Of a DNA stretch of 64,000 nt, positions 4,991 through 30,477 are shown in pieces; positions within the stretch are counted from its first letter, which is position 1; each line of letters begins with the position of its first letter. Origin of the DNA: Alphaproteobacteria bacterium (GTDB taxonomy: Bacteria; Pseudomonadota; Alphaproteobacteria; Micropepsales; Micropepsaceae); assembly GCA_013140995.1 (NCBI GenBank), contig JABFRX010000097.1:8194-72193 (forward strand). Reading direction: 5' to 3'. Under the pieces are notes generated by a model that had not been told where the DNA came from, ran no database searches, and saw nothing but the letters and a program-made list of their open reading frames with translations. The translations under genes were made by a program, and so were the position numbers.

Positions 4991-5682
4991 GTTTTCGGTG
5001 CCGCAAGACCGGCCGCGAGAAATGCCGATAGCTCGCGTTTGATCGTTTCGTTCGGCGTCGCATCGGCGGCGATGGCGGCCGGCATCCATTTCGGGAACTT
5101 TCCCGCCTTGAGCATCGTGATCATCATCAGCGATTGTTGAACCGCCGAACGCATAAAGGCGAGGCGCCATTTGCGCATTGGGTCGTCGGCCAAATGCGGC
5201 ACGGCGCGCAATAATGCCGCTTCGAAGCGGTCGAAGATGCGAACTTGGCTTTCAGGCGGCTCTAGCTGTTCGAAACCCGGTTCCCACGCTAGCCGCGAGA
5301 CGAAACGTATGAAGTGCTGCCATCCGCTGGTTTCCGACAACGCGAGATCGACAATAGGATCGATCATCGCCTCGACAAGTTCAATGACGGCGGGTTCGCG
5401 ATTCTCGTGCTTGGCCTTTGCTTCAATACGATCGAGGGCGATCGTGCGCTCGTGCTCAAGGTTGGCGGCGCGGCGCTCCAACACCTTGCGGACGAGGTTC
5501 TCTTTCGAGTCGAAATGATAGTTGACAGCCGCGACGTTGACTTTGGCCTTCTCGGTGATCGTGCGGACCGACGTGCCGGCGATACCTTGTTCGGCGAACA
5601 GTTCTTCGGCCGCGTCCAGGATACGATCTATCGTGGCACTCGACTGGGGCGGCTCGCGGAGCGACGGCTCTACCTTGACCAT
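4987..5682 (-). CDS. TetR/AcrR family transcriptional regulator
   Basis: HTH region ILDAAEELFAEQGIAGTSVRTITEKAKVNVAAVNYHFDSKENL. ATG 5682 is preferred over the ORF-track start at 5742. Convergent 4-nt overlap with the hydrolase. Confidence 0.8.
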   Translation of the reverse strand: MVKVEPSLREPPQSSATIDRILDAAEELFAEQGIAGTSVRTITEKAKVNVAAVNYHFDSKENLVRKVLERRAANLEHERTIALDRIEAKAKHENREPAVIELVEAMIDPIVDLALSETSGWQHFIRFVSRLAWEPGFEQLEPPESQVRIFDRFEAALLRAVPHLADDPMRKWRLAFMRSAVQQSLMMITMLKAGKFPKWMPAAIAADATPNETIKRELSAFLAAGLAAPKT

Positions 5683-5793
5683 ACGGGTGACAGCATAACC
5701 CGCGCATAGCGTGCGACAAGCGATATCTCTATTGCAGCGCACACCTCACTGAGGTTGATTGCGGGCAACGCGTTAACACCTTGGAGGAAAGCA

Positions 5794-6648
5794 ATGCCTG
5801 TAACCCATGACGGCTTGATGGCGCTGAAGTCGGAAGGCGACGTCTTTACCTATAGTGACAGGGATACGATGCTCTACGCGCTCGGCGTCGGCATGGGGCG
5901 CGATCCGATGAACGAAGCGGAACTGCCGTTCGTGTACGAGAACGGTTTGAAGACCGTGCCAACTTTGGCAACCGTCATCGCGTGGGGACAGCGGACGATC
6001 GGACAAGCGGGTATCAACTATCTGATGGTCGTGCACGGCGAGCAGCGTTTGACTGTTCATAAGCCGCTTCCGGCTTCGGCGACAATCATCGCGGATGAAC
6101 GGGTCGTCGCCGCGGTCGACAAGGGTGCAGGCAAGGGCGCGCTGATTTACACCGAGAAGGTCATCCGTCTGAAGGATACGAACGAGAAGCTCTGTACGGT
6201 GGGCGGCACGATCTTCGCGCGCGGCGACGGCGGCTTCGGCGGGCCTTCGACCGGTGGGCCGGAACCGCACGCTATCCCCGAGCGGAAGGCGGACGCGGTT
6301 TGCGAGAACGATACGCGGGTCGATCAAGCACTGCTCTACCGGCTGTCGGGGGATCGCAATCCGCTGCATTCGGACCCGAAGATCGCGAAGATGGCGGGGT
6401 TTCCGCGGCCAATCCTGCATGGGCTTTGCACCTATGGGACGGTGTGCCGGGGCGTGTTGCAGACGATCTGCCACTACGACCATACGATGATCGCGGGCTT
6501 CGATGTGCGTTTCTCTTCGCCGGTGTTTCCCGGCGAGACGATCGTGACCGAGATGTGGAAGGACGGGAACGTCGTCTCGTTCCGTTCGAAGGTGAAGGAG
6601 CGCTACGTCGTCGTGATCAACAACGGCAAATGCACACTGAAGAGCTAG
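5794..6648 (+). CDS. MaoC-like (R)-specific enoyl-CoA hydratase/dehydratase, double hot-dog
   Basis: YRLSGDRNPLHSDPKIAKMAGFPRPILHGL hydratase-2 motif. GGAGGA Shine-Dalgarno 5 nt before ATG 5794. Confidence 0.75.
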   Translation: MPVTHDGLMALKSEGDVFTYSDRDTMLYALGVGMGRDPMNEAELPFVYENGLKTVPTLATVIAWGQRTIGQAGINYLMVVHGEQRLTVHKPLPASATIIADERVVAAVDKGAGKGALIYTEKVIRLKDTNEKLCTVGGTIFARGDGGFGGPSTGGPEPHAIPERKADAVCENDTRVDQALLYRLSGDRNPLHSDPKIAKMAGFPRPILHGLCTYGTVCRGVLQTICHYDHTMIAGFDVRFSSPVFPGETIVTEMWKDGNVVSFRSKVKERYVVVINNGKCTLKS

Positions 6649-7724
6649 CCCGCGACCCGCTTGGGGTTGCGGCGGAGCTGATCGCCGCTGGCCGGGCGGA
6701 TGAGGTCGTCGCCGCCGCGCGACAGATGCTGGCCGCGCAGCGTGGCGGTGTGCTGACGCGCGTGGCCCTGGGCCGGGCGCTTGTTGCAGCGGGCGATAGC
6801 GCCGAAGCGGTCGCGTCGTTGCGCGAGGCCGATCTGCTTTCGCCCAACACGCCGGAGGTGGTGCTGGCGTTCGGTGAGGCGCTAGCGGCTGCGGGTGCGT
6901 TGCCCACCGCGATTGCCGAGTTTCAGCGTGCAGTACGTCTGTCGCCGCACGACGGTCGTCCGCATTGGCAGATCGCACAGCTTTGGCTTGCGGCGGGGGA
7001 GCCGGATAAAGCGGAGGCTACTGCGGACACGGCGTTGGCACTTCACGGTGCGAGCGACGGCGCGGTGGCGGAACTACGGGTAGCGGCGGCGCGGATACGG
7101 ACTGCAAGTCGCGCCGATGCGGGGTATGTGCGGCATCTGTTCGATCAGTTTGCAGCCGACTATGACACGCGGATGCGCGGGCGGTTGGGCTATGCGGCGC
7201 CCGGTATCCTGCGCGACCTTGTGGGTTTGCTGATCGATCCCGATGCGCGGTTCGATGTTCTCGACCTGGGATGTGGGACGGGCCTTAGTGGGCTCGCGTT
7301 TAAACCGATTGCAAAATCCCTTGTTGGCGTGGATCTGTCGCCGAAGATGCTGGCGAAGGCGCGCGAGCTGAACATCTACGACAAGCTAATCGGGGGCGAC
7401 GTCGAAACGCTGAACTTGGCGCGGACGTTCGATATCGTAGTCGCTGCCGATGTACTCGTTTATCTCGGCGATTTGACGAAGCTCTTTGCGGTGGCGCGTG
7501 CGCGCTTGACGCCGAACGGACTGTGGCTCTTCACAACGGAGAAGGGCGACGCGCAAGATTTCGGCTTGGGCAAGACGCGGCGGTACCGGCACAGCGAGGC
7601 ATATCTGCGCCGCCTTGCGGAAACGCATGGCTTCGATGCCGTGAGCCTGATCGAGTGCGTGACGCGTTATGAGGCCGGCGTCGCGGTGCCGAGTTGGGCG
7701 GCGGCGTTGCGTCTGCGACACTAG
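6630..7724 (+). CDS. TPR-repeat class I SAM-dependent methyltransferase
   Basis: N-terminal TPR-like Ala/Leu repeats, then FDQFAADYD...VLDLGCGTGLSG (motif I). Start taken at ATG 6630; the ORF-track N-terminus overlaps the MaoC gene. Confidence 0.75.
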   Translation: MHTEELARDPLGVAAELIAAGRADEVVAAARQMLAAQRGGVLTRVALGRALVAAGDSAEAVASLREADLLSPNTPEVVLAFGEALAAAGALPTAIAEFQRAVRLSPHDGRPHWQIAQLWLAAGEPDKAEATADTALALHGASDGAVAELRVAAARIRTASRADAGYVRHLFDQFAADYDTRMRGRLGYAAPGILRDLVGLLIDPDARFDVLDLGCGTGLSGLAFKPIAKSLVGVDLSPKMLAKARELNIYDKLIGGDVETLNLARTFDIVVAADVLVYLGDLTKLFAVARARLTPNGLWLFTTEKGDAQDFGLGKTRRYRHSEAYLRRLAETHGFDAVSLIECVTRYEAGVAVPSWAAALRLRH

Positions 7725-7867
7725 CGAGGCGCATTGGCTGGCGGGTTTGACGGGGTTTGGCCTAGAAACGCTGAGGTTAAGATCGAATCCGTTCGGCGTG
7801 GATTTGTGGCGCCGGTTTGGGGTATAGACCCCCTCCTCTATCGTTCCCAGGTTGTCGAGGTTTTGCC

Positions 7868-8392
7868 ATGCGGGTTTTCTTTGCTGCCGCAGTTTCCGTG
7901 TTGTTTGCCGCCGTCGTGATCGCTGCGCCAACGGCGGGCAAGCCGCCGAAGGCCGTCGATATCAAGAAGGAGCTTGGCGAAAAGTGCGGCTCAGCGCCGT
8001 ACGGCTTGGTCGATCTCAACGGCAAGACCGCGTCGAAGCTGGAATTGGAAGAGGCGAAGTTTCAGGTCACGGGCTTTATCACGCAAGCGGACGTCTATCA
8101 GGATTGCGTCTACAAACTGGCCGAGACTCATGCAGCGGTACTGACGGACAACGACAAGCGTTTGCTTGGCACCGCGTTGAAGGTGAGCCAGGACGAAAAG
8201 GAAGCCGTCGGCGCGGCGTTCAACACCGCTATTTGCGAGTACAACGCGGCGAACAAGATTCCGGACGCCGACTGCAAGGACGGCAAATGGATCCAGCAGA
8301 CGGTCGCGCAGAAGCCCGCGAAGCCTGCGGCAACGCCTGCCAAACCGGCGGCTGCGAAGCCTGCGGCGCCCGCGACGCCGAAACCGCAGTAA
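7868..8392 (+). CDS. Hypothetical secreted protein with a C-terminal PAKPAA repeat tail
   Basis: Signal peptide MRVFFAAAVSVLFAAVVIAAP, four Cys, tail AQKPAKPAATPAKPAAAKPAAPATPKPQ. No family recognised. Confidence 0.5.
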   Translation: MRVFFAAAVSVLFAAVVIAAPTAGKPPKAVDIKKELGEKCGSAPYGLVDLNGKTASKLELEEAKFQVTGFITQADVYQDCVYKLAETHAAVLTDNDKRLLGTALKVSQDEKEAVGAAFNTAICEYNAANKIPDADCKDGKWIQQTVAQKPAKPAATPAKPAAAKPAAPATPKPQ

Positions 8393-8542
8393 GCTGAACG
8401 GCAAACAAAACGCATGAGACTGCGGCGGAAAGCCGCCAGGCACCTGAGCGCTCGCCTCAGGATTGCCACATGCGCGCCCCGCATGAGGCGCATTTGGGCG
8501 TGAGCTTCATCCTTCGAGAGACCCCGAAGGAGAGTAGCGCCT

Positions 8543-10276
8543 ATGACCACCATTTCCCGCGTTTCGTTTCGTGAATCGCTGACCACCTCCGCCGCGATCG
8601 CCGCGCTGCTCGTCGGCGTGCTGTTGCTTGCCGGATGCGATCAGCGCGTCAGCGAAGGCGAAACCGACGCGAAGGCGCCGGAGAAGAACAAGCTCAGCCC
8701 GAGAGAAATTAAAGACGATACCGATCAACTCTCAACCGATGCAGCCACAGCGCCGGAGCCAAGCATGCGGGGATTTGCCTCCGCGCCGCCACCGCCGTTG
8801 ATGCTGCCGCAGCCGGAGGTGCGCGACAAATTTCCGGATGCAAAGCCCAATCCGGTGAAGCTGGTCGCTGAGGAGCCGGTTTCGACGTTCTCGGCCGATG
8901 TCGATACGGCGTCCTATACGGTGGTCCGGAAGTTCTTAAACGACGGCGCACTGCCGCCTGCCGACGCCGTGCGCATCGAAGAGATGGTGAACTACTTCGA
9001 CTACAGCTATCCCCTGCCCGACAATCGCGCGCAGCCGTTCCGGCCATCCGTCGCCGTCTACCAGACGCCTTGGAATCCGGACACGCAGATCGTGCACATC
9101 GGCATCAAAGGCTTCGACATTCAACGCAGCGAGCGGCCGACGGCGAATCTTGTGTTCCTTCTCGACGTGTCGGGATCGATGGACGAGCCGAACAAGCTGC
9201 CGCTGGTGAAAAAGGCGATGCGGATGCTTGTCAACGAGCTCGACGCGAAGGATCGGGTGTCGATCGTCGTCTATGCCGGTGCTGCGGGTGTGGTGCTTGA
9301 GCCGACACCGGGGTCGGAGAAGGGCAAGATTTTGGCCGCGATCGACGATCTGACACCCGGCGGATCGACGGCCGGTGCCGAAGGCATTCGTCAGGCCTAT
9401 CAGCTGGCGCGGTCCGGCTTTGTCAAAGATGGTGTTAATCGCGTGATCCTGGCGACCGACGGCGACTTCAATGTCGGCATCACCGATCCGAACCAGCTTG
9501 AGGATTTCGTGGCGCGCGAACGTGAGAGCGGCGTGACGCTGACTTGCCTTGGGTTTGGCATCGGCAACTACAACGACGCCTTGATGCAGAAGTTGGCACA
9601 GAAGGGTAATGGCAACGCCGCCTATATCGACACGATAAACGAGGCGCGGAAGGTGCTGGTTGAGCAGATTGGCGGCACGTTGTTCACGATTGCGAAGGAC
9701 GTGAAGTTCCAGATCGAGTTCAATCCGTCGCGGGTGAGCGAGTACCGGTTGGTTGGCTATGAGACGCGGCTGCTTAATCGCGAGGACTTCAACAACGACA
9801 AGGTGGATGCGGGCGATATCGGTGCGGGACACGCTGTGACCGCGCTCTACGAGATCGTGCCTGCGGGATCGAACGGGCATTTGATGGACCCGCTGCGCTA
9901 TCAGTCGAAGACGCCGGTGGTGCCCACGAGTTCGACCGGCGAGATTGCGTTCTTGCGTATGCGCTACAAACTGCAGGCGGAGAGCCAGAGCCGGCTGATC
10001 GAGCGGCCGGTGACGGACCGCGACAAGGTCGAAGACGTGCGCGGTGCGGGCGAGGACTTGCGGTTTGCTGCTGCGGTCGCCGGGTTCGGGCAGTTGTTGC
10101 GCAACGATCCTTACATGAAGAACTTCGGCTACAAGGACGTGGCCGAGTTGGCGAACGGCGCGAAGGGACGCGATCCGTTCGGCTATCGCTCAGAGTTCGT
10201 GCAGCTGGTGAAGCTCGCGCAGGCGCTGCCGTCGATCCCGGCGCTCGAGCAAGACGGCCAGGGCGGCCCGGATTAG
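8543..10276 (+). CDS. von Willebrand factor type A domain protein (YfbK-like, lipoprotein-type N-terminus)
   Basis: LLLAGC lipobox and MIDAS motif LLDVSGSMDEPNKLPLVKKAM. Also GGSTAGAEGIRQAY and ILATDGDFNVG, plus a C-terminal region typical of YfbK-like proteins. Confidence 0.85.
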   Translation: MTTISRVSFRESLTTSAAIAALLVGVLLLAGCDQRVSEGETDAKAPEKNKLSPREIKDDTDQLSTDAATAPEPSMRGFASAPPPPLMLPQPEVRDKFPDAKPNPVKLVAEEPVSTFSADVDTASYTVVRKFLNDGALPPADAVRIEEMVNYFDYSYPLPDNRAQPFRPSVAVYQTPWNPDTQIVHIGIKGFDIQRSERPTANLVFLLDVSGSMDEPNKLPLVKKAMRMLVNELDAKDRVSIVVYAGAAGVVLEPTPGSEKGKILAAIDDLTPGGSTAGAEGIRQAYQLARSGFVKDGVNRVILATDGDFNVGITDPNQLEDFVARERESGVTLTCLGFGIGNYNDALMQKLAQKGNGNAAYIDTINEARKVLVEQIGGTLFTIAKDVKFQIEFNPSRVSEYRLVGYETRLLNREDFNNDKVDAGDIGAGHAVTALYEIVPAGSNGHLMDPLRYQSKTPVVPTSSTGEIAFLRMRYKLQAESQSRLIERPVTDRDKVEDVRGAGEDLRFAAAVAGFGQLLRNDPYMKNFGYKDVAELANGAKGRDPFGYRSEFVQLVKLAQALPSIPALEQDGQGGPD

Positions 10277-27660: not shown

Positions 27661-27900
27661 ATGACGACACTAACGAGCAAGGGGCAAGTGACGATCCCAA
27701 AGCGCTTACGCGATCATTTACGGCTTAAGCCGGGTGCGGAGGTTGAATTCGAAGTCATAACCGACGGGCGGGTGGTCATCGTGGCAAAGGGAAATGGCCC
27801 GCGCGGTAAAAGCCGGTTTGCAAAGCTCGTGGGCAGCGCCAAAGGCAAGAGCAGCAACATGACGACCGACCAACTCATGGCGCTCACGCGCGGCGAGTAG
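27661..27900 (+). CDS. vapB: AbrB/SpoVT-family antitoxin (VapB-like)
   Basis: MTTLTSKGQVTIPKRLRDHLRLKPGAEVEFEV swapped-hairpin motif; 79 aa; immediately precedes a PIN-domain gene. Confidence 0.85.
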   Translation: MTTLTSKGQVTIPKRLRDHLRLKPGAEVEFEVITDGRVVIVAKGNGPRGKSRFAKLVGSAKGKSSNMTTDQLMALTRGE

Positions 27901-27906
27901 GGCCCT

Positions 27907-28305
27907 TTGATTCTTGTCGACACAAACGTGTTGCTCGATGTCGTGACAGACGATCCGGTTTGGAAGCCTTGGTCTCTTGCGCAACTGGAGGCAGCAGCTG
28001 CGAGTGATCGACTGGCGATCAATGAGGTTGTCTTTGCCGAACTCTCTGTCAAATACAGCCGTATCGAGGACGTCGAGAAACTGATCGACGATGCAGACCT
28101 CATCGTAGAAAGGACGCCGCGTGGCGCGCTGTTCCTTGCGGGGCAGACCTATCAAAGCTACCGGAAATCGGGCGGTCAGCGTACGGGTGTCTTGCCCGAC
28201 TTTTTCATTGGTGCGCATGCCGCCGTTGCCGGCGTTGCGTTGCTCACGCGCGATTCGCGGCGGTATCGGACCTACTTTCCACGCGTGAAGCTGCTGGCTC
28301 CGTAA
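27907..28305 (+). CDS. vapC: PIN-domain ribonuclease toxin (VapC-like)
   Basis: ILVDTNVLLDVV (first acidic residue); 132 aa; TTG start 6 nt after the vapB stop. Confidence 0.8.
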   Translation: MILVDTNVLLDVVTDDPVWKPWSLAQLEAAAASDRLAINEVVFAELSVKYSRIEDVEKLIDDADLIVERTPRGALFLAGQTYQSYRKSGGQRTGVLPDFFIGAHAAVAGVALLTRDSRRYRTYFPRVKLLAP

Positions 28306-28580: not shown

Positions 28581-28618
28581 AAAATGAAGCGGGGCCGCCC
28601 GGTCGCCCGGACGGCCCC
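28581..28618 (-). terminator. Rho-independent-type terminator of the low-complexity protein gene
   Basis: GGGGCCG(C)CCGG-TCGC-CCGG(A)CGGCCCC; on the minus strand it is followed by GCUUCAUUUU. Confidence 0.6.
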
Positions 28619-28649
28619 ATCCCCTTCGTAACGGGCAGACTATGTCGCC

Positions 28650-29615
28650 TTACTTCGGCGGCAGGGCTTTGCGAACCTTGCGGACCTTGCGAACCGGGCG
28701 GTCAACGACCGGTGCCATCGGCGTGTATTCACGCGCCGGGGGCGGGGCAAAGACGGCGACCACTTCGCCGTTCGGGCACGGCGTGCCTGCCATGATCATC
28801 GCCTGACGGACGTCTTCATCGACGCACATCAGCGAAGTCGCCGCGCGGTGGTAGCCCAAGGACACCAGCTGACGCGAGTTTTTGAGGCGGCGGCAGTTGT
28901 CGTCCTGCCAGGTCGTGCCGATCGAGAGACCGAACGAAACAGCCTGCGCACCTATCGAGCTCGACCCCATGCAGGTGTCTTCGCCGACGGCCAACGGCGC
29001 AGCGTACGCCGTGTTCACTGGAGCGCGTTCGTTGTACGTGTTGACCTCGAGGTTGGCGTTGTTCGAGTTCGAGTTGTCGTTGGCGTTGTAGCTCGACTGG
29101 TGCTGACCCTGAGCCTGGCCCTGAATCTGGCCTTGGGCCTGCTTGTTGGTGTTGTTGTTCTCATTCTTGTTGACGTTTTTGTTCGCGTTTAGGTTCGTGT
29201 TATAGTTCTTGTTGTTGATATCGATGTCGTTCTTGTTGATGTTCTTGTTATCGATGTCGATGTCGTTCTTGTTGTAGGCGTGCGCATCGCCGCCTTTGGC
29301 GATGTTGGCATTGTGGTTTATTGCCGTTGCGTCAGCGTCACCACCGCGGCCACCTTGACCGCCTTCGCCACCTTTACCGCCCTGGCCGCCATAACCATGG
29401 CCGCCGTAGCCGTTGCCGCCTTCGCCGTAGCCGATGCCGACGCCGATGGCCGTGTTCTTGTTGTCGATATCGATGTCACCGCCCTTCGGGGGCGGCGGAG
29501 GCGTGGGATTACAATTCTTCGTGCAGTGATTGCCGGTCGCGAAGGCCGGCGTTGTGAGGGCCGTGGAGCCGAGAAGCATTGCGACAGCCACGAAACCCAG
29601 TTTAACAGAACGCAT
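28650..29615 (-). CDS. Secreted Gly-rich / Asn-Lys-Asp-rich low-complexity protein with a Cys-containing C-terminal domain (hypothetical)
   Basis: Signal peptide MRSVKLGFVAVAMLLGSTALTTPAFA. Poly-Pro, a GYGGxGG block, three DIDIDNKN motifs, an N/K/Q-rich tract and a QGQ repeat. Then an ordinary-composition domain with 4 Cys and a basic tail RKVRKVRK. Confidence 0.7.
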   Translation of the reverse strand: MRSVKLGFVAVAMLLGSTALTTPAFATGNHCTKNCNPTPPPPPKGGDIDIDNKNTAIGVGIGYGEGGNGYGGHGYGGQGGKGGEGGQGGRGGDADATAINHNANIAKGGDAHAYNKNDIDIDNKNINKNDIDINNKNYNTNLNANKNVNKNENNNTNKQAQGQIQGQAQGQHQSSYNANDNSNSNNANLEVNTYNERAPVNTAYAAPLAVGEDTCMGSSSIGAQAVSFGLSIGTTWQDDNCRRLKNSRQLVSLGYHRAATSLMCVDEDVRQAMIMAGTPCPNGEVVAVFAPPPAREYTPMAPVVDRPVRKVRKVRKALPPK

Positions 29616-29907
29616 AGGTTAATCTCCCGTTACTTGAGCGCGAACCCTCAAGTGCACGGGGCGGGCCAATTCTCTTTGTGTCACCGAGATACAGCCGACT
29701 CCTTTGAAGATTGCGGCAATCCGCCGGAAACCATGCTGCGGGCGGCGTTAAGGCTAGCGCGAATTTACGCCGTACCAATCGGACACAGCTGCCGCCGGTC
29801 CTGAAGAATGTGTTAAAACGGGTGCGGCAGGGGTCTCGTGGGGAGAGCCCTCGATGATGGGGCCGCGCCTGGGCAAGTAAACTCAGCGGCGGCGATGTGG
29901 GTGTGTC

Positions 29908-30477
29908 GTGCGGTTTTTTACTTTTGTCTGTTGCTTGGTGATGGCGTTTGCGGTTGCAGCCGGCGATGCAAATGCGCGTTCATGTGGACGCGCTAGCGAC
30001 CGTGACAATCCGATGGTTTGGAGCGAAGGCTACGGCGCTTCGCAATGCCGGGTTCACAGGCCGCGCTATGATAGCCGCGACGTTGCGCGCGAGCGGGCGC
30101 GCGGGTACGCCGCCGCGGCCGACCCGATGGTTTGGCCCAATACGCAATGGCGTAGCACGCTGATGGGCGGCTATTCGCGCAACACCGACAGCCGCTATGA
30201 TCGGCGCTTCCGCCGCGAACACGCTGCACGGCCGCAGGTTCGAATCGAACGGCAAATCGAAGTCACGATCCGCCAGGGCGACGCAGTGGCAGCGGACGAG
30301 GCGAGGGCCCGCGGGCCGAAGCTGCTCAGTGGGCGCACACGCGGGGAGTTCAAGACGACCTCCGGCGTGCTTCGGTTCGGCGGGCACGACTGCCGTGGTG
30401 TGCTGGTGCTGACGTGGGGCTCGCTCGGCGGCAAGTCACGCTGTCACGAAAACAATAGCCGTATCAAGACACCGTAG
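29908..30477 (+). CDS. Hypothetical secreted Arg-rich protein
   Basis: GTG start; signal-like MRFFTFVCCLVMAFAVAAGDANA; duplicated [ND]PMVW motif. Divergent from the low-complexity gene. No family recognised. Confidence 0.4.
   Translation: MRFFTFVCCLVMAFAVAAGDANARSCGRASDRDNPMVWSEGYGASQCRVHRPRYDSRDVARERARGYAAAADPMVWPNTQWRSTLMGGYSRNTDSRYDRRFRREHAARPQVRIERQIEVTIRQGDAVAADEARARGPKLLSGRTRGEFKTTSGVLRFGGHDCRGVLVLTWGSLGGKSRCHENNSRIKTP

Follow-up and report, generated by a model that had tools for sequence, protein, structure and literature searches.

What kind of protein is specified by a gene that stands out from a GC-rich genome by its composition, and is it a functional gene at all? This question is raised by open reading frame 1 (ORF1), which lies at positions 28650-29615 of a 64,000-nucleotide stretch of contig JABFRX010000097.1 (hereafter the window), from a 4.0-Mb assembly of 319 contigs assigned to an alphaproteobacterium of the family Micropepsaceae. 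An earlier note, made from the sequence alone, had described its 321-amino-acid (aa) product as a secreted low-complexity protein with a divergently encoded secreted partner (ORF2) and had considered fibre-forming proteins of the curli or chaplin type. We found that ORF1 is a real, conserved gene for an exported protein and that its product very likely belongs to the PHROG 20531 family of phage and bacterial proteins. We tentatively propose that it may act as an envelope protein anchored by its C-terminal end.

Architecture and conservation of ORF1

The following parts of ORF1 were distinguished:

28650-29615, minus strand: ORF1, coding sequence for an exported modular protein of 321 aa
29538-29615, minus strand: Sec signal peptide as read from the sequence, residues 1-26, cleavage between AFA and T, no lipobox
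29511-29525, minus strand: N-terminal Cys pair of the mature protein, C31-x3-C35
29487-29501, minus strand: PPPPP, residues 39-43
29031-29537, minus strand: hypervariable periodic low-complexity region, residues 27-195
29334-29405, minus strand: Gly block, residues 71-94, a Gly-x-y run of 8 GGx-type triplets
Residues 47-54, 118-125 and 130-137 of ORF1: three DIDI[DN]NKN motifs
29094-29213, minus strand: 40-residue run of 20 (N/Q)-x dipeptides, residues 135-174
28752-29030, minus strand: conserved 4-Cys domain, residues 196-288, with Cys 215, 241, 264 and 280
28653-28751, minus strand: Pro-rich linker and basic tail ending RKVRKVRKALPPK

The product was found at these positions with the sequence given in the earlier note, and all of the motifs listed there (signal peptide, PPPPP, Gly block, three DIDI[DN]NKN motifs, N/K tract, four Cys and basic tail) could be located in it. 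The C31-x3-C35 pair directly after the signal peptide had been overlooked, and the N/K tract and QAQGQIQGQAQGQ proved to join into the single (N/Q)-x dipeptide run of residues 135-174. The N-terminus is conserved among the orthologues. The grand average of hydropathy (GRAVY) is −0.86 for the mature protein and −1.37 for its repeat region, and the basic tail, which ends with LPPK, has an isoelectric point (pI) of 11.5 (residues 291-321).

Intact orthologues of ORF1 were found in 19 of the 25 genomes of the genus (its own genome counted), and no orthologue was present in 16 genomes from other families of the same class. Across the genus genomes with ORF1, the C-terminal domain is 52-83% identical, reaching 98% in the closest strain, L025. 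The nearest relatives are encoded by metagenome-assembled genomes (MAGs) of Micropepsaceae, and relatives in general stem mainly from environmental metagenome assemblies. ORF1 and the divergent ORF2, separated by 292 bp, are flanked by thiC and a vapBC pair on one side and by hemE and the genes for a cytochrome c and 5-aminolevulinate synthase on the other. This host locus between thiC and hemE is a conserved chromosomal position, with thiC, ORF1 and ORF2 syntenic in the clade, and no prophage genes were found near ORF1 within the window. The vapBC pair (27661-28305), which codes for an AbrB-type antitoxin and a PIN (VapC) toxin, sits between thiC and ORF1.

An odd composition is all that would speak for a non-functional ORF1, either a chance reading frame or a decaying remnant. 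The intact frame and the domain identities just given, a G+C content at third codon positions (GC3) of 0.77, the conserved ribosome-binding site (RBS), promoter and terminator described below and the existence of thousands of homologues all stand against it. Since ORF1 is conserved, this explanation is already refuted and we give it practically no credence. The earlier note had reckoned with a frame that might be broken or not conserved in close relatives. Its view of a secreted low-complexity protein has held: the gene is genuine, its product is modular, and the Cys domain is conserved.

The conspicuously AT-rich stretch at 29100-29300 was also borne out (GC 0.48 at 29100-29299 against 0.62 for the window), but it is not a sign of foreign DNA. 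The dip is confined to codon positions 1 and 2 and therefore results from the amino-acid composition. GC3 amounts to 0.84 in the N/K tract (0.77-0.84 over the low-complexity region) compared with 0.69-0.79 in the neighbouring housekeeping genes; AAC occurs 37 times and AAT 5 times, and the preferred codons are AAC, AAG, GAC and ATC. Because of the GC3 value and the use of AAC over AAT, the codon usage is native, and so is the DNA of this stretch. ORF1 has the highest Asn content of the 3,901 ORF proxies of the genome (13.1%, median 2.6%). The recurring word seen by the earlier reader is a 21-mer with copies at 29208, 29244 and 29457, which differ by at most two mismatches (0.01 expected by chance).

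The C-terminal domain and its family

Residues 196-288 of ORF1 matched positions 189-281 of the profile of PHROG 20531, a family of unknown function, with an E value of 5e-27. The match was confirmed on the genome, and more distant relatives match the same profile at up to 1e-74. As judged from these alignments, we consider the membership of ORF1 in the PHROG-20531-type family very likely. A search with its C-terminal part retrieved 113 clusters. The profile search with the Cys domain alone, which the earlier note had suggested, extended the family to 2,901 representative clusters (50% identity) at E ≤ 1e-3, with 1,603 of them at E ≤ 1e-10, and the architecture was uniform among the 150 best-scoring of the 2,901. 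The earlier reader had recognised no match to the sequence; the domain in fact falls into a very large catalogued family, which is uncharacterised. Scans of Pfam, NCBIfam and PADLOC gave no match for ORF1 or ORF2, profile searches of the PDB gave none for the C-terminal domain, and we found no relevant literature on the family (PHROG 20531, JWAlpha gp25 and kin). A resemblance to PG_binding_1 seen by eye (an 'LGY' motif and three helices) was dropped, since no recurrent Pfam family emerged from 36 domain-only sequences at E ≤ 10. The low-complexity part proved to be a lineage-variable module of the PHROG 20531 family. The earlier proviso that it might be an expansion within a well-characterised family does not apply, because this family is not well characterised.

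A constant plan was observed in 235 members: the signal peptide is followed by a low-complexity region, then by the domain, which measures about 90 aa and contains four invariant Cys, and finally by a tail. The tails fall into these classes:

DPIVRxRLGLPPL(K): 42 of 235 members
Pro-rich and basic, ending in LPPK (the class of ORF1): 33 of 235 members
Other Pro-rich and basic: about 50 of 235 members
OmpA peptidoglycan-binding domain: about 20 of 235 members (about 1 in 12), and 8 of 78 in a smaller set
No tail: 16 of 235 members

The OmpA domain of the relatives takes the position of the basic tail, and this replacement is our main argument for an envelope or peptidoglycan-associated location. 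The number of Cys residues before the domain is 0 or 2 and almost never odd, as is typical of oxidised periplasmic or secreted proteins; in 80 of 178 members, they form a C-x3-10-C pair that directly follows the signal peptide. In some members, between 23 and 86 Gly-x-y triplets immediately precede the 4-Cys domain. The collagen family PF01391 was matched in the relatives P0063, P0067, P0072 and P0073, the last three of which combine the Cys pair, 83-86 triplets, the 4-Cys domain and an OmpA domain. Because these collagen members place the domain between triple-helix repeats and OmpA, the domain may nucleate or oligomerise the fibrous N-terminal part.

Copies of the family were detected by tblastn in the lytic Ralstonia phages RSP15, RsoM2USA and phiRSL1, the Achromobacter phages JWAlpha and JWDelta, the Agrobacterium phage JP1 and three Pelagibacter phages. 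Every one is annotated as a hypothetical protein and is encoded in an early or accessory region. Two betaproteobacterial phage proteins that were translated have the same module order, including QAQGQIQGQ-like runs, and in a translated Pelagibacter phage protein the signal peptide and the domain are retained, together with a region rich in N, S and T. The bacterial members belong to the Alpha- and Betaproteobacteria, with chromosomal copies in Hyphomonadaceae and Caulobacterales MAGs and in Variovorax, Herbaspirillum, Burkholderia, Caballeronia and Novosphingobium. The distribution is patchy: the family was found in 5 of 400 sampled Pseudomonadota genomes and in none of 14 model genomes searched, including E. 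coli, B. subtilis and Caulobacter vibrioides. This absence from the model genomes is probably why the family has never been studied.

Such a distribution raises the possibility that ORF1 is a phage-derived envelope-modifying 'moron' which became fixed in the chromosome and whose domain binds an envelope component needed by phages, for example in superinfection exclusion or receptor masking. The family is itself a PHROG, the same architecture recurs in lytic phages of four host genera, a member is carried by the phage-like contig L021, and both the patchy occurrence and a hypervariable region that would fit an arms race agree with this origin. However, the conserved chromosomal position between thiC and hemE in 19 of 25 genus genomes, the native codon usage and the host-type putative sigma-54 promoter (see below) speak against it, and neither a PADLOC match nor prophage genes nearby were found. 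We therefore regard a moron as an unlikely identity for ORF1.

The L021 contig (SRR13870178_19354, 1-10670) contains genes of the 7-deazaguanine pathway, namely queC, a PTPS/queD-like gene and the gene for GTP cyclohydrolase I (folE). It also contains many small ORFs and the family member (6001-6828), followed by a putative clamp-like gene and a gene for a 670-aa DNA polymerase. Among the chromosomal copies, those of Herbaspirillum, Variovorax and B. cenocepacia have one or two further genes immediately in front of the gene for the 4-Cys-domain protein. The products of these further genes are secreted G/A/S/T/N low-complexity proteins without the domain, and they gave no Pfam match. The gene sets are:

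L088: 4037-4615 and 4683-5366
L102: 5965-6657 and about 6722-7624
L101 (B. cenocepacia): 5138-5473, 5513-6175 and 6542-8203

They could represent a subunit-plus-anchor arrangement. In B. cenocepacia, the gene of a sigma-54 enhancer-binding protein lies just downstream (L101:9055-10476).

Periodicity and turnover of the repeat region

The autocorrelation of N/Q in the repeat region is positive at lags 2, 4, 6 and 8 (0.27, 0.28, 0.20 and 0.18) and negative at odd lags, and this period-2 signal was present in 89% of 100 family members. For Gly, the autocorrelation in family members has its maxima at lags 3 and 6. Of 235 members, 89 contain a run of 8 or more (N/Q)-x dipeptides and 24 a Gly-x-y run of 8 or more triplets; composition-preserving shuffles produced neither. 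ORF1 carries both types, with its 8 GGx-type triplets and 20 (N/Q)-x dipeptides. In a comparison with strain L025, identity was 100% over the signal peptide and the first 45 residues and about 98-99% over the last 131, whereas the central portion of about 120 residues is wholly different and unalignable; ORF2 is 93% identical between the two strains. The repeat region thus keeps a grammar, N/Q at every second and Gly at every third residue, and not a sequence. Its coding DNA is an imperfect tandem-repeat patchwork with periods of 6, 9, 12, 15 and 36 nt, and we propose slippage of units of 6-36 nt as its mode of evolution. Part of the phasing could arise without selection if 6-nt units slip.

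Judged from the sequence pattern, the periodicity favours an ordered extended structure, either Asn/Gln-faced beta strands or polyglycine-II (PGII)- or collagen-like helices, over a purely random coil. The opposite view would be that the region is a disordered periplasmic filler, hydrophilin or spacer in which only composition matters (for water retention, crowding or desiccation tolerance), the Cys domain serving to stabilise or retain it. The GRAVY of the repeat region, its lack of sequence conservation and the environmental origin of most relatives are compatible with such a role, as is the lack of a confident AlphaFold2 (AF2) structure. The C-terminal 141 aa of ORF1 were modelled from a 78-sequence alignment with a mean confidence (pLDDT) of 59.5; in the model, the first Cys pair encloses a beta hairpin that is poorly defined, and the second pair is surrounded by three helices of moderate confidence. 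ORF2 reached 53.7. Low confidence for a monomer in spite of a good alignment would also fit an obligate oligomer or a disulfide-dependent fold, without proving one. On the other hand, the period-2 and period-3 phasing lies far above composition-matched shuffles, even though slippage could account for a part of it, and the continuity with true collagen repeats in relatives argues for order. A mere filler appears improbable to us.

The same periodicities bear on the suggestion in the earlier note of amyloid-like, beta-solenoid or adhesive fibres. Since the period-2 N/Q pattern is beta-strand-like and the period-3 Gly pattern collagen- or PGII-like, a fibrous or beta-rich structure is plausible, and this part of the suggestion stands. 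The assignment to the curli or chaplin type does not. According to this idea, ORF1 would be a subunit of functional amyloid or beta-solenoid fibres outside the cell, comparable to curli, Fap or chaplins, and its N/Q region would stack in cross-beta form for matrix building or adhesion. The strict (N/Q)-x alternation over 40 residues, which is a family-wide pattern, the extremely hydrophilic N/Q/G composition and the CsgG-like channels encoded in the genome would be in accordance with it. However, neither Curlin_rpt (PF07012) nor chaplin (PF03777) matched ORF1 at E ≤ 1 in the Pfam scan, while a true curlin-repeat protein (PF07012) of the same genome, C182:3418-3981 (minus strand), scored 1.7e-16. 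No CsgG/E/F-like gene adjoins ORF1; the two CsgG homologues lie on contigs C128 and C130 with substrates of their own. Clustering of neighbouring genes revealed no partner conserved across clades, and no export or nucleator gene beside the family members in any clade. Moreover, the OmpA-fused relatives point to a periplasmic, peptidoglycan-associated location, and curli repeats are conserved in sequence, whereas the ORF1 region cannot be aligned even between strains. We consider an extracellular amyloid subunit quite improbable.

In the operon-like C128 cluster (5756-9828), the gene for the CsgG-like lipoprotein (7455-8306) is accompanied by genes for a response regulator of the LuxR type and for two secreted proteins, one of 321 aa and one of 163 aa that is rich in G, S and N. 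Neither secreted protein had a Pfam match, and the cluster looks like an export module of the curli/holdfast-anchor (Hfa) type. The organism thus has curli/Hfa-like machinery, but ORF1 has no linkage to this machinery and no resemblance to its substrates.

Expression signals of ORF1

The following elements were recognised around the coding sequence:

29653-29668, minus strand: putative sigma-54-type promoter TGGCCCGCCCCGTGCA (GG-N10-GC), 37 nt upstream of the ORF1 ATG, assigned from positional conservation
29673-29693, minus strand: conserved box TGTATCTCGGTGACACAAAGA with the imperfect inverted repeat GTnyC-N5-GrnAC (TGTATCTCGGTGACAC), abutting the −24 element, from the alignment of 13 regions
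29616-29640, minus strand: conserved 5' leader with a strong RBS (GTAACGGGAGATTAACCT, then ATG), nearly invariant in closer orthologues
28590-28619, minus strand: intrinsic terminator with a 13-bp stem (11 GC) and T-rich tail, 31 nt past the ORF1 stop codon

The geometry of a sigma-54 promoter (−24 GG, −12 GC, 10-nt spacing) is present at ORF1. In the alignment of 13 ORF2-ORF1 intergenic regions, TGGCC-N8-TGC(A/T) is invariant about 50 nt before the ATG and its spacer is variable. In 23 orthologous loci, among them more divergent ones and one whose product is fused to OmpA, the form TGG[CT]-N8-TGC[AT] precedes the ATG by 47-65 nt. The adjoining box is a candidate regulator site, suggested by its conservation, and its combination with the promoter is unique in the genome. 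No sigma-70-like site was found at ORF1. From the conserved promoter, RBS and terminator and the lack of a sigma-70-like site, ORF1 appears to be a monocistronic, probably conditionally expressed unit. A match of the Caulobacter small RNA CC2171 (Rfam) to 28591-28689 (minus strand) was taken as a chance one, probably driven by the hairpin, as it overlaps the terminator and scored 25 bits against a gathering score of 75.

The genome contains one rpoN gene (contig C44) and three enhancer-binding proteins: NtrC (above the NCBIfam cut-off), an NtrX-like protein and an orphan receiver-AAA+ (GSFTGA)-Fis regulator. A genome-wide scan for the sigma-54 regulon was too noisy to name co-regulated genes. 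The sequence TGGC-N8-TGC was seen 18-34 nt before the starts of two genes for secreted low-complexity proteins, C226:576 (plus strand) and C86:29878 (plus strand), one of 401 aa (Q/P/G/K-rich) and the other of 251 aa (R/Q-rich, basic). These genes are possible further sigma-54 targets.

The divergent gene ORF2

The earlier note had also pointed to a divergent gene for a signal-peptide protein with a duplicated [ND]PMVW motif. Both copies of the motif are present:

29908-30477, plus strand: ORF2, coding sequence for 189 aa with a GTG start and a signal peptide (residues 1-23)
30007-30021, plus strand: NPMVW, residues 34-38
30121-30135, plus strand: DPMVW, residues 72-76
30382-30444, plus strand: C-terminal beta-hairpin, GHDCRGVLVLTWG...C

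ORF2 is Arg-rich, with a pI of 10.9 for the mature protein. The [ND]PMVW pair, four Cys and the C-terminal hairpin are conserved in a family of 41 clusters, all of them unannotated. As to the conservation of the pair, ORF2 homologues are adjacent to and divergent from ORF1 homologues in at least 10 relatives and were not found beside distant ORF1 relatives; the pairing is therefore real but lineage-specific. What is new here for the ORF1 orthologues, as read from their sequences, is the putative sigma-54 promoter, the conserved RBS, the strong predicted terminator and the genus-specific partner gene.

An extracytoplasmic function (ECF)-like pair of elements, GGAAAC...CGTTAA, upstream of ORF2 was rejected, as its spacing varies in relatives. 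An ATG in the frame of ORF2, 51 nt upstream of the GTG, is closed by a TAA at 29878 (29857-29880). In relatives this upstream frame is open and gene callers start there (MGP...), about 17 residues before the signal peptide; this is probably a mis-called start.

Proposed function of ORF1 and its family

Our proposal, which we hold with a confidence somewhat short of even, is that the ORF1 product is exported, stabilised by disulfides and anchored in the envelope by its C-terminal end, that its periodic region is a fast-evolving fibre or spacer, and that a sigma-54 promoter drives its expression. Localisation, anchoring, oligomerisation and regulation, as we infer them, would be as follows. ORF1 would be exported by Sec and its signal peptide cleaved. 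After export, DsbA/DsbB would oxidise the protein, forming two disulfides in the domain of about 90 aa and, optionally, a small N-terminal disulfide loop. The protein would stay in the envelope, where an anchoring module at its C-terminal end would fasten it to the layer of the peptidoglycan or outer membrane; this module may be the Pro-rich linker and basic tail in ORF1 and the OmpA-type domain in some relatives. The 4-Cys domain could then nucleate the folding or oligomerisation of the repeat region, which would be extended and either fibrous or gel-like. In that region, N/Q on alternate residues would give a beta-strand that has Asn/Gln on one side, and Gly at every third residue would give a collagen- or PGII-like conformation. 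Expression would be switched on at the sigma-54 promoter by an enhancer-binding protein, possibly NtrC or the orphan receiver-AAA+ regulator, and the protein would be paired with the lineage-specific, strongly basic secreted ORF2.

Several observations weigh against this proposal. Half of the members have no N-terminal Cys pair and 16 of 235 have no tail, so that anchoring cannot be uniform throughout the family. The AF2 model of ORF1 is poor, and the best Foldseek match in the PDB had an E value of 0.8. The loose sigma-54 pattern is common, with 16 matches in the window, and the case for the promoter rests for this reason on its positional conservation and not on the match itself. The motif is absent upstream of those Caulobacterales/Hyphomonadaceae and phage copies whose start can be placed. 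In Burkholderiales, its matches fall within coding sequence, apart from one at about 230 nt upstream of the gene, and none has a convincing promoter position. An upstream activator site at the typical distance was not identified for ORF1.

In a wider sense, the PHROG-20531-type family might constitute an unrecognised class of envelope fibres or tethers, in which a disulfide-locked domain would nucleate fibres of interchangeable periodic modules and anchor them to the peptidoglycan or outer membrane. The modules would be Asn/Gln polar-zipper strands, PGII/GGx segments and true collagen triple helices. Bacteria would deploy the fibres under sigma-54 control, lytic phages would use their own versions to remodel or mask the envelope, and the hypervariable fibre would be the target of an arms race. 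This generalisation is speculative and, in our estimate, rather doubtful. ORF1 is one ordinary member of the family, which comprises about 2,900 clusters at 50% identity without a Pfam, NCBIfam or structural entry and is common to free-living proteobacteria and lytic phages. The family's mode of evolution is unusual in that the phasing of N/Q and Gly persists through a complete turnover of the sequence. Should its role in phage infection or in the envelope be established, thousands of 'hypothetical proteins' would gain an annotation, and a new periplasmic or surface fibre might come to light.

Comparison with known systems

The closest counterparts of ORF1 are the phage proteins of PHROG 20531 (JWAlpha gp25, RSP15 ORF122 and phiRSL1 ORF070), which share with it the 4-Cys domain, the module order and QxQGQ runs. 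They differ in the tail, which is DPIVRxRLGLPPLK in the phage proteins and the basic ...LPPK in ORF1, and ORF1 is chromosomal, in a conserved host locus and behind a putative sigma-54 promoter. Spackle and Imm of phage T4 are small signal-peptide proteins from the early or accessory regions of lytic phages that act in periplasmic superinfection exclusion. The phage copies of PHROG 20531 are likewise small, have a signal peptide and come from such regions, but no similarity in sequence or fold to Spackle or Imm was detected, and the bacterial copies are chromosomal and apparently host-regulated.

Like the curli proteins CsgA and CsgB, ORF1 is predicted to be exported by Sec, is N/Q/G-rich and repeat-built and is probably beta-rich. 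In contrast to curlins, it has no conserved repeat unit and possesses a C-terminal disulfide domain and a basic tail. The chaplin domain is a hydrophobic unit of about 40 aa with two Cys, typical of actinobacteria. Chaplin membership of ORF1 was rejected in view of the lack of a Pfam match, the negative GRAVY of the mature protein and the alphaproteobacterial host.

Bacterial collagen-like proteins (PF01391), for example Scl1/2 and BclA, have terminal trimerisation domains. The likeness lies in the Gly-x-y triplets that precede the 4-Cys domain in relatives, in the 8-triplet GGx run of ORF1 and in the Cys pairs flanking the fibrous part. On the other hand, ORF1 itself does not match PF01391, has only these 8 triplets, and its repeat region is mostly period-2 N/Q. 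Tethers of the OmpA family and the Lpp type offer the last parallel. ORF1 has no OmpA domain (PF00691), lipobox or beta-barrel, but relatives end in an OmpA domain at the position of its tail. Braun's lipoprotein ends in Lys, and ORF1, too, has a terminal Lys after its basic stretch.

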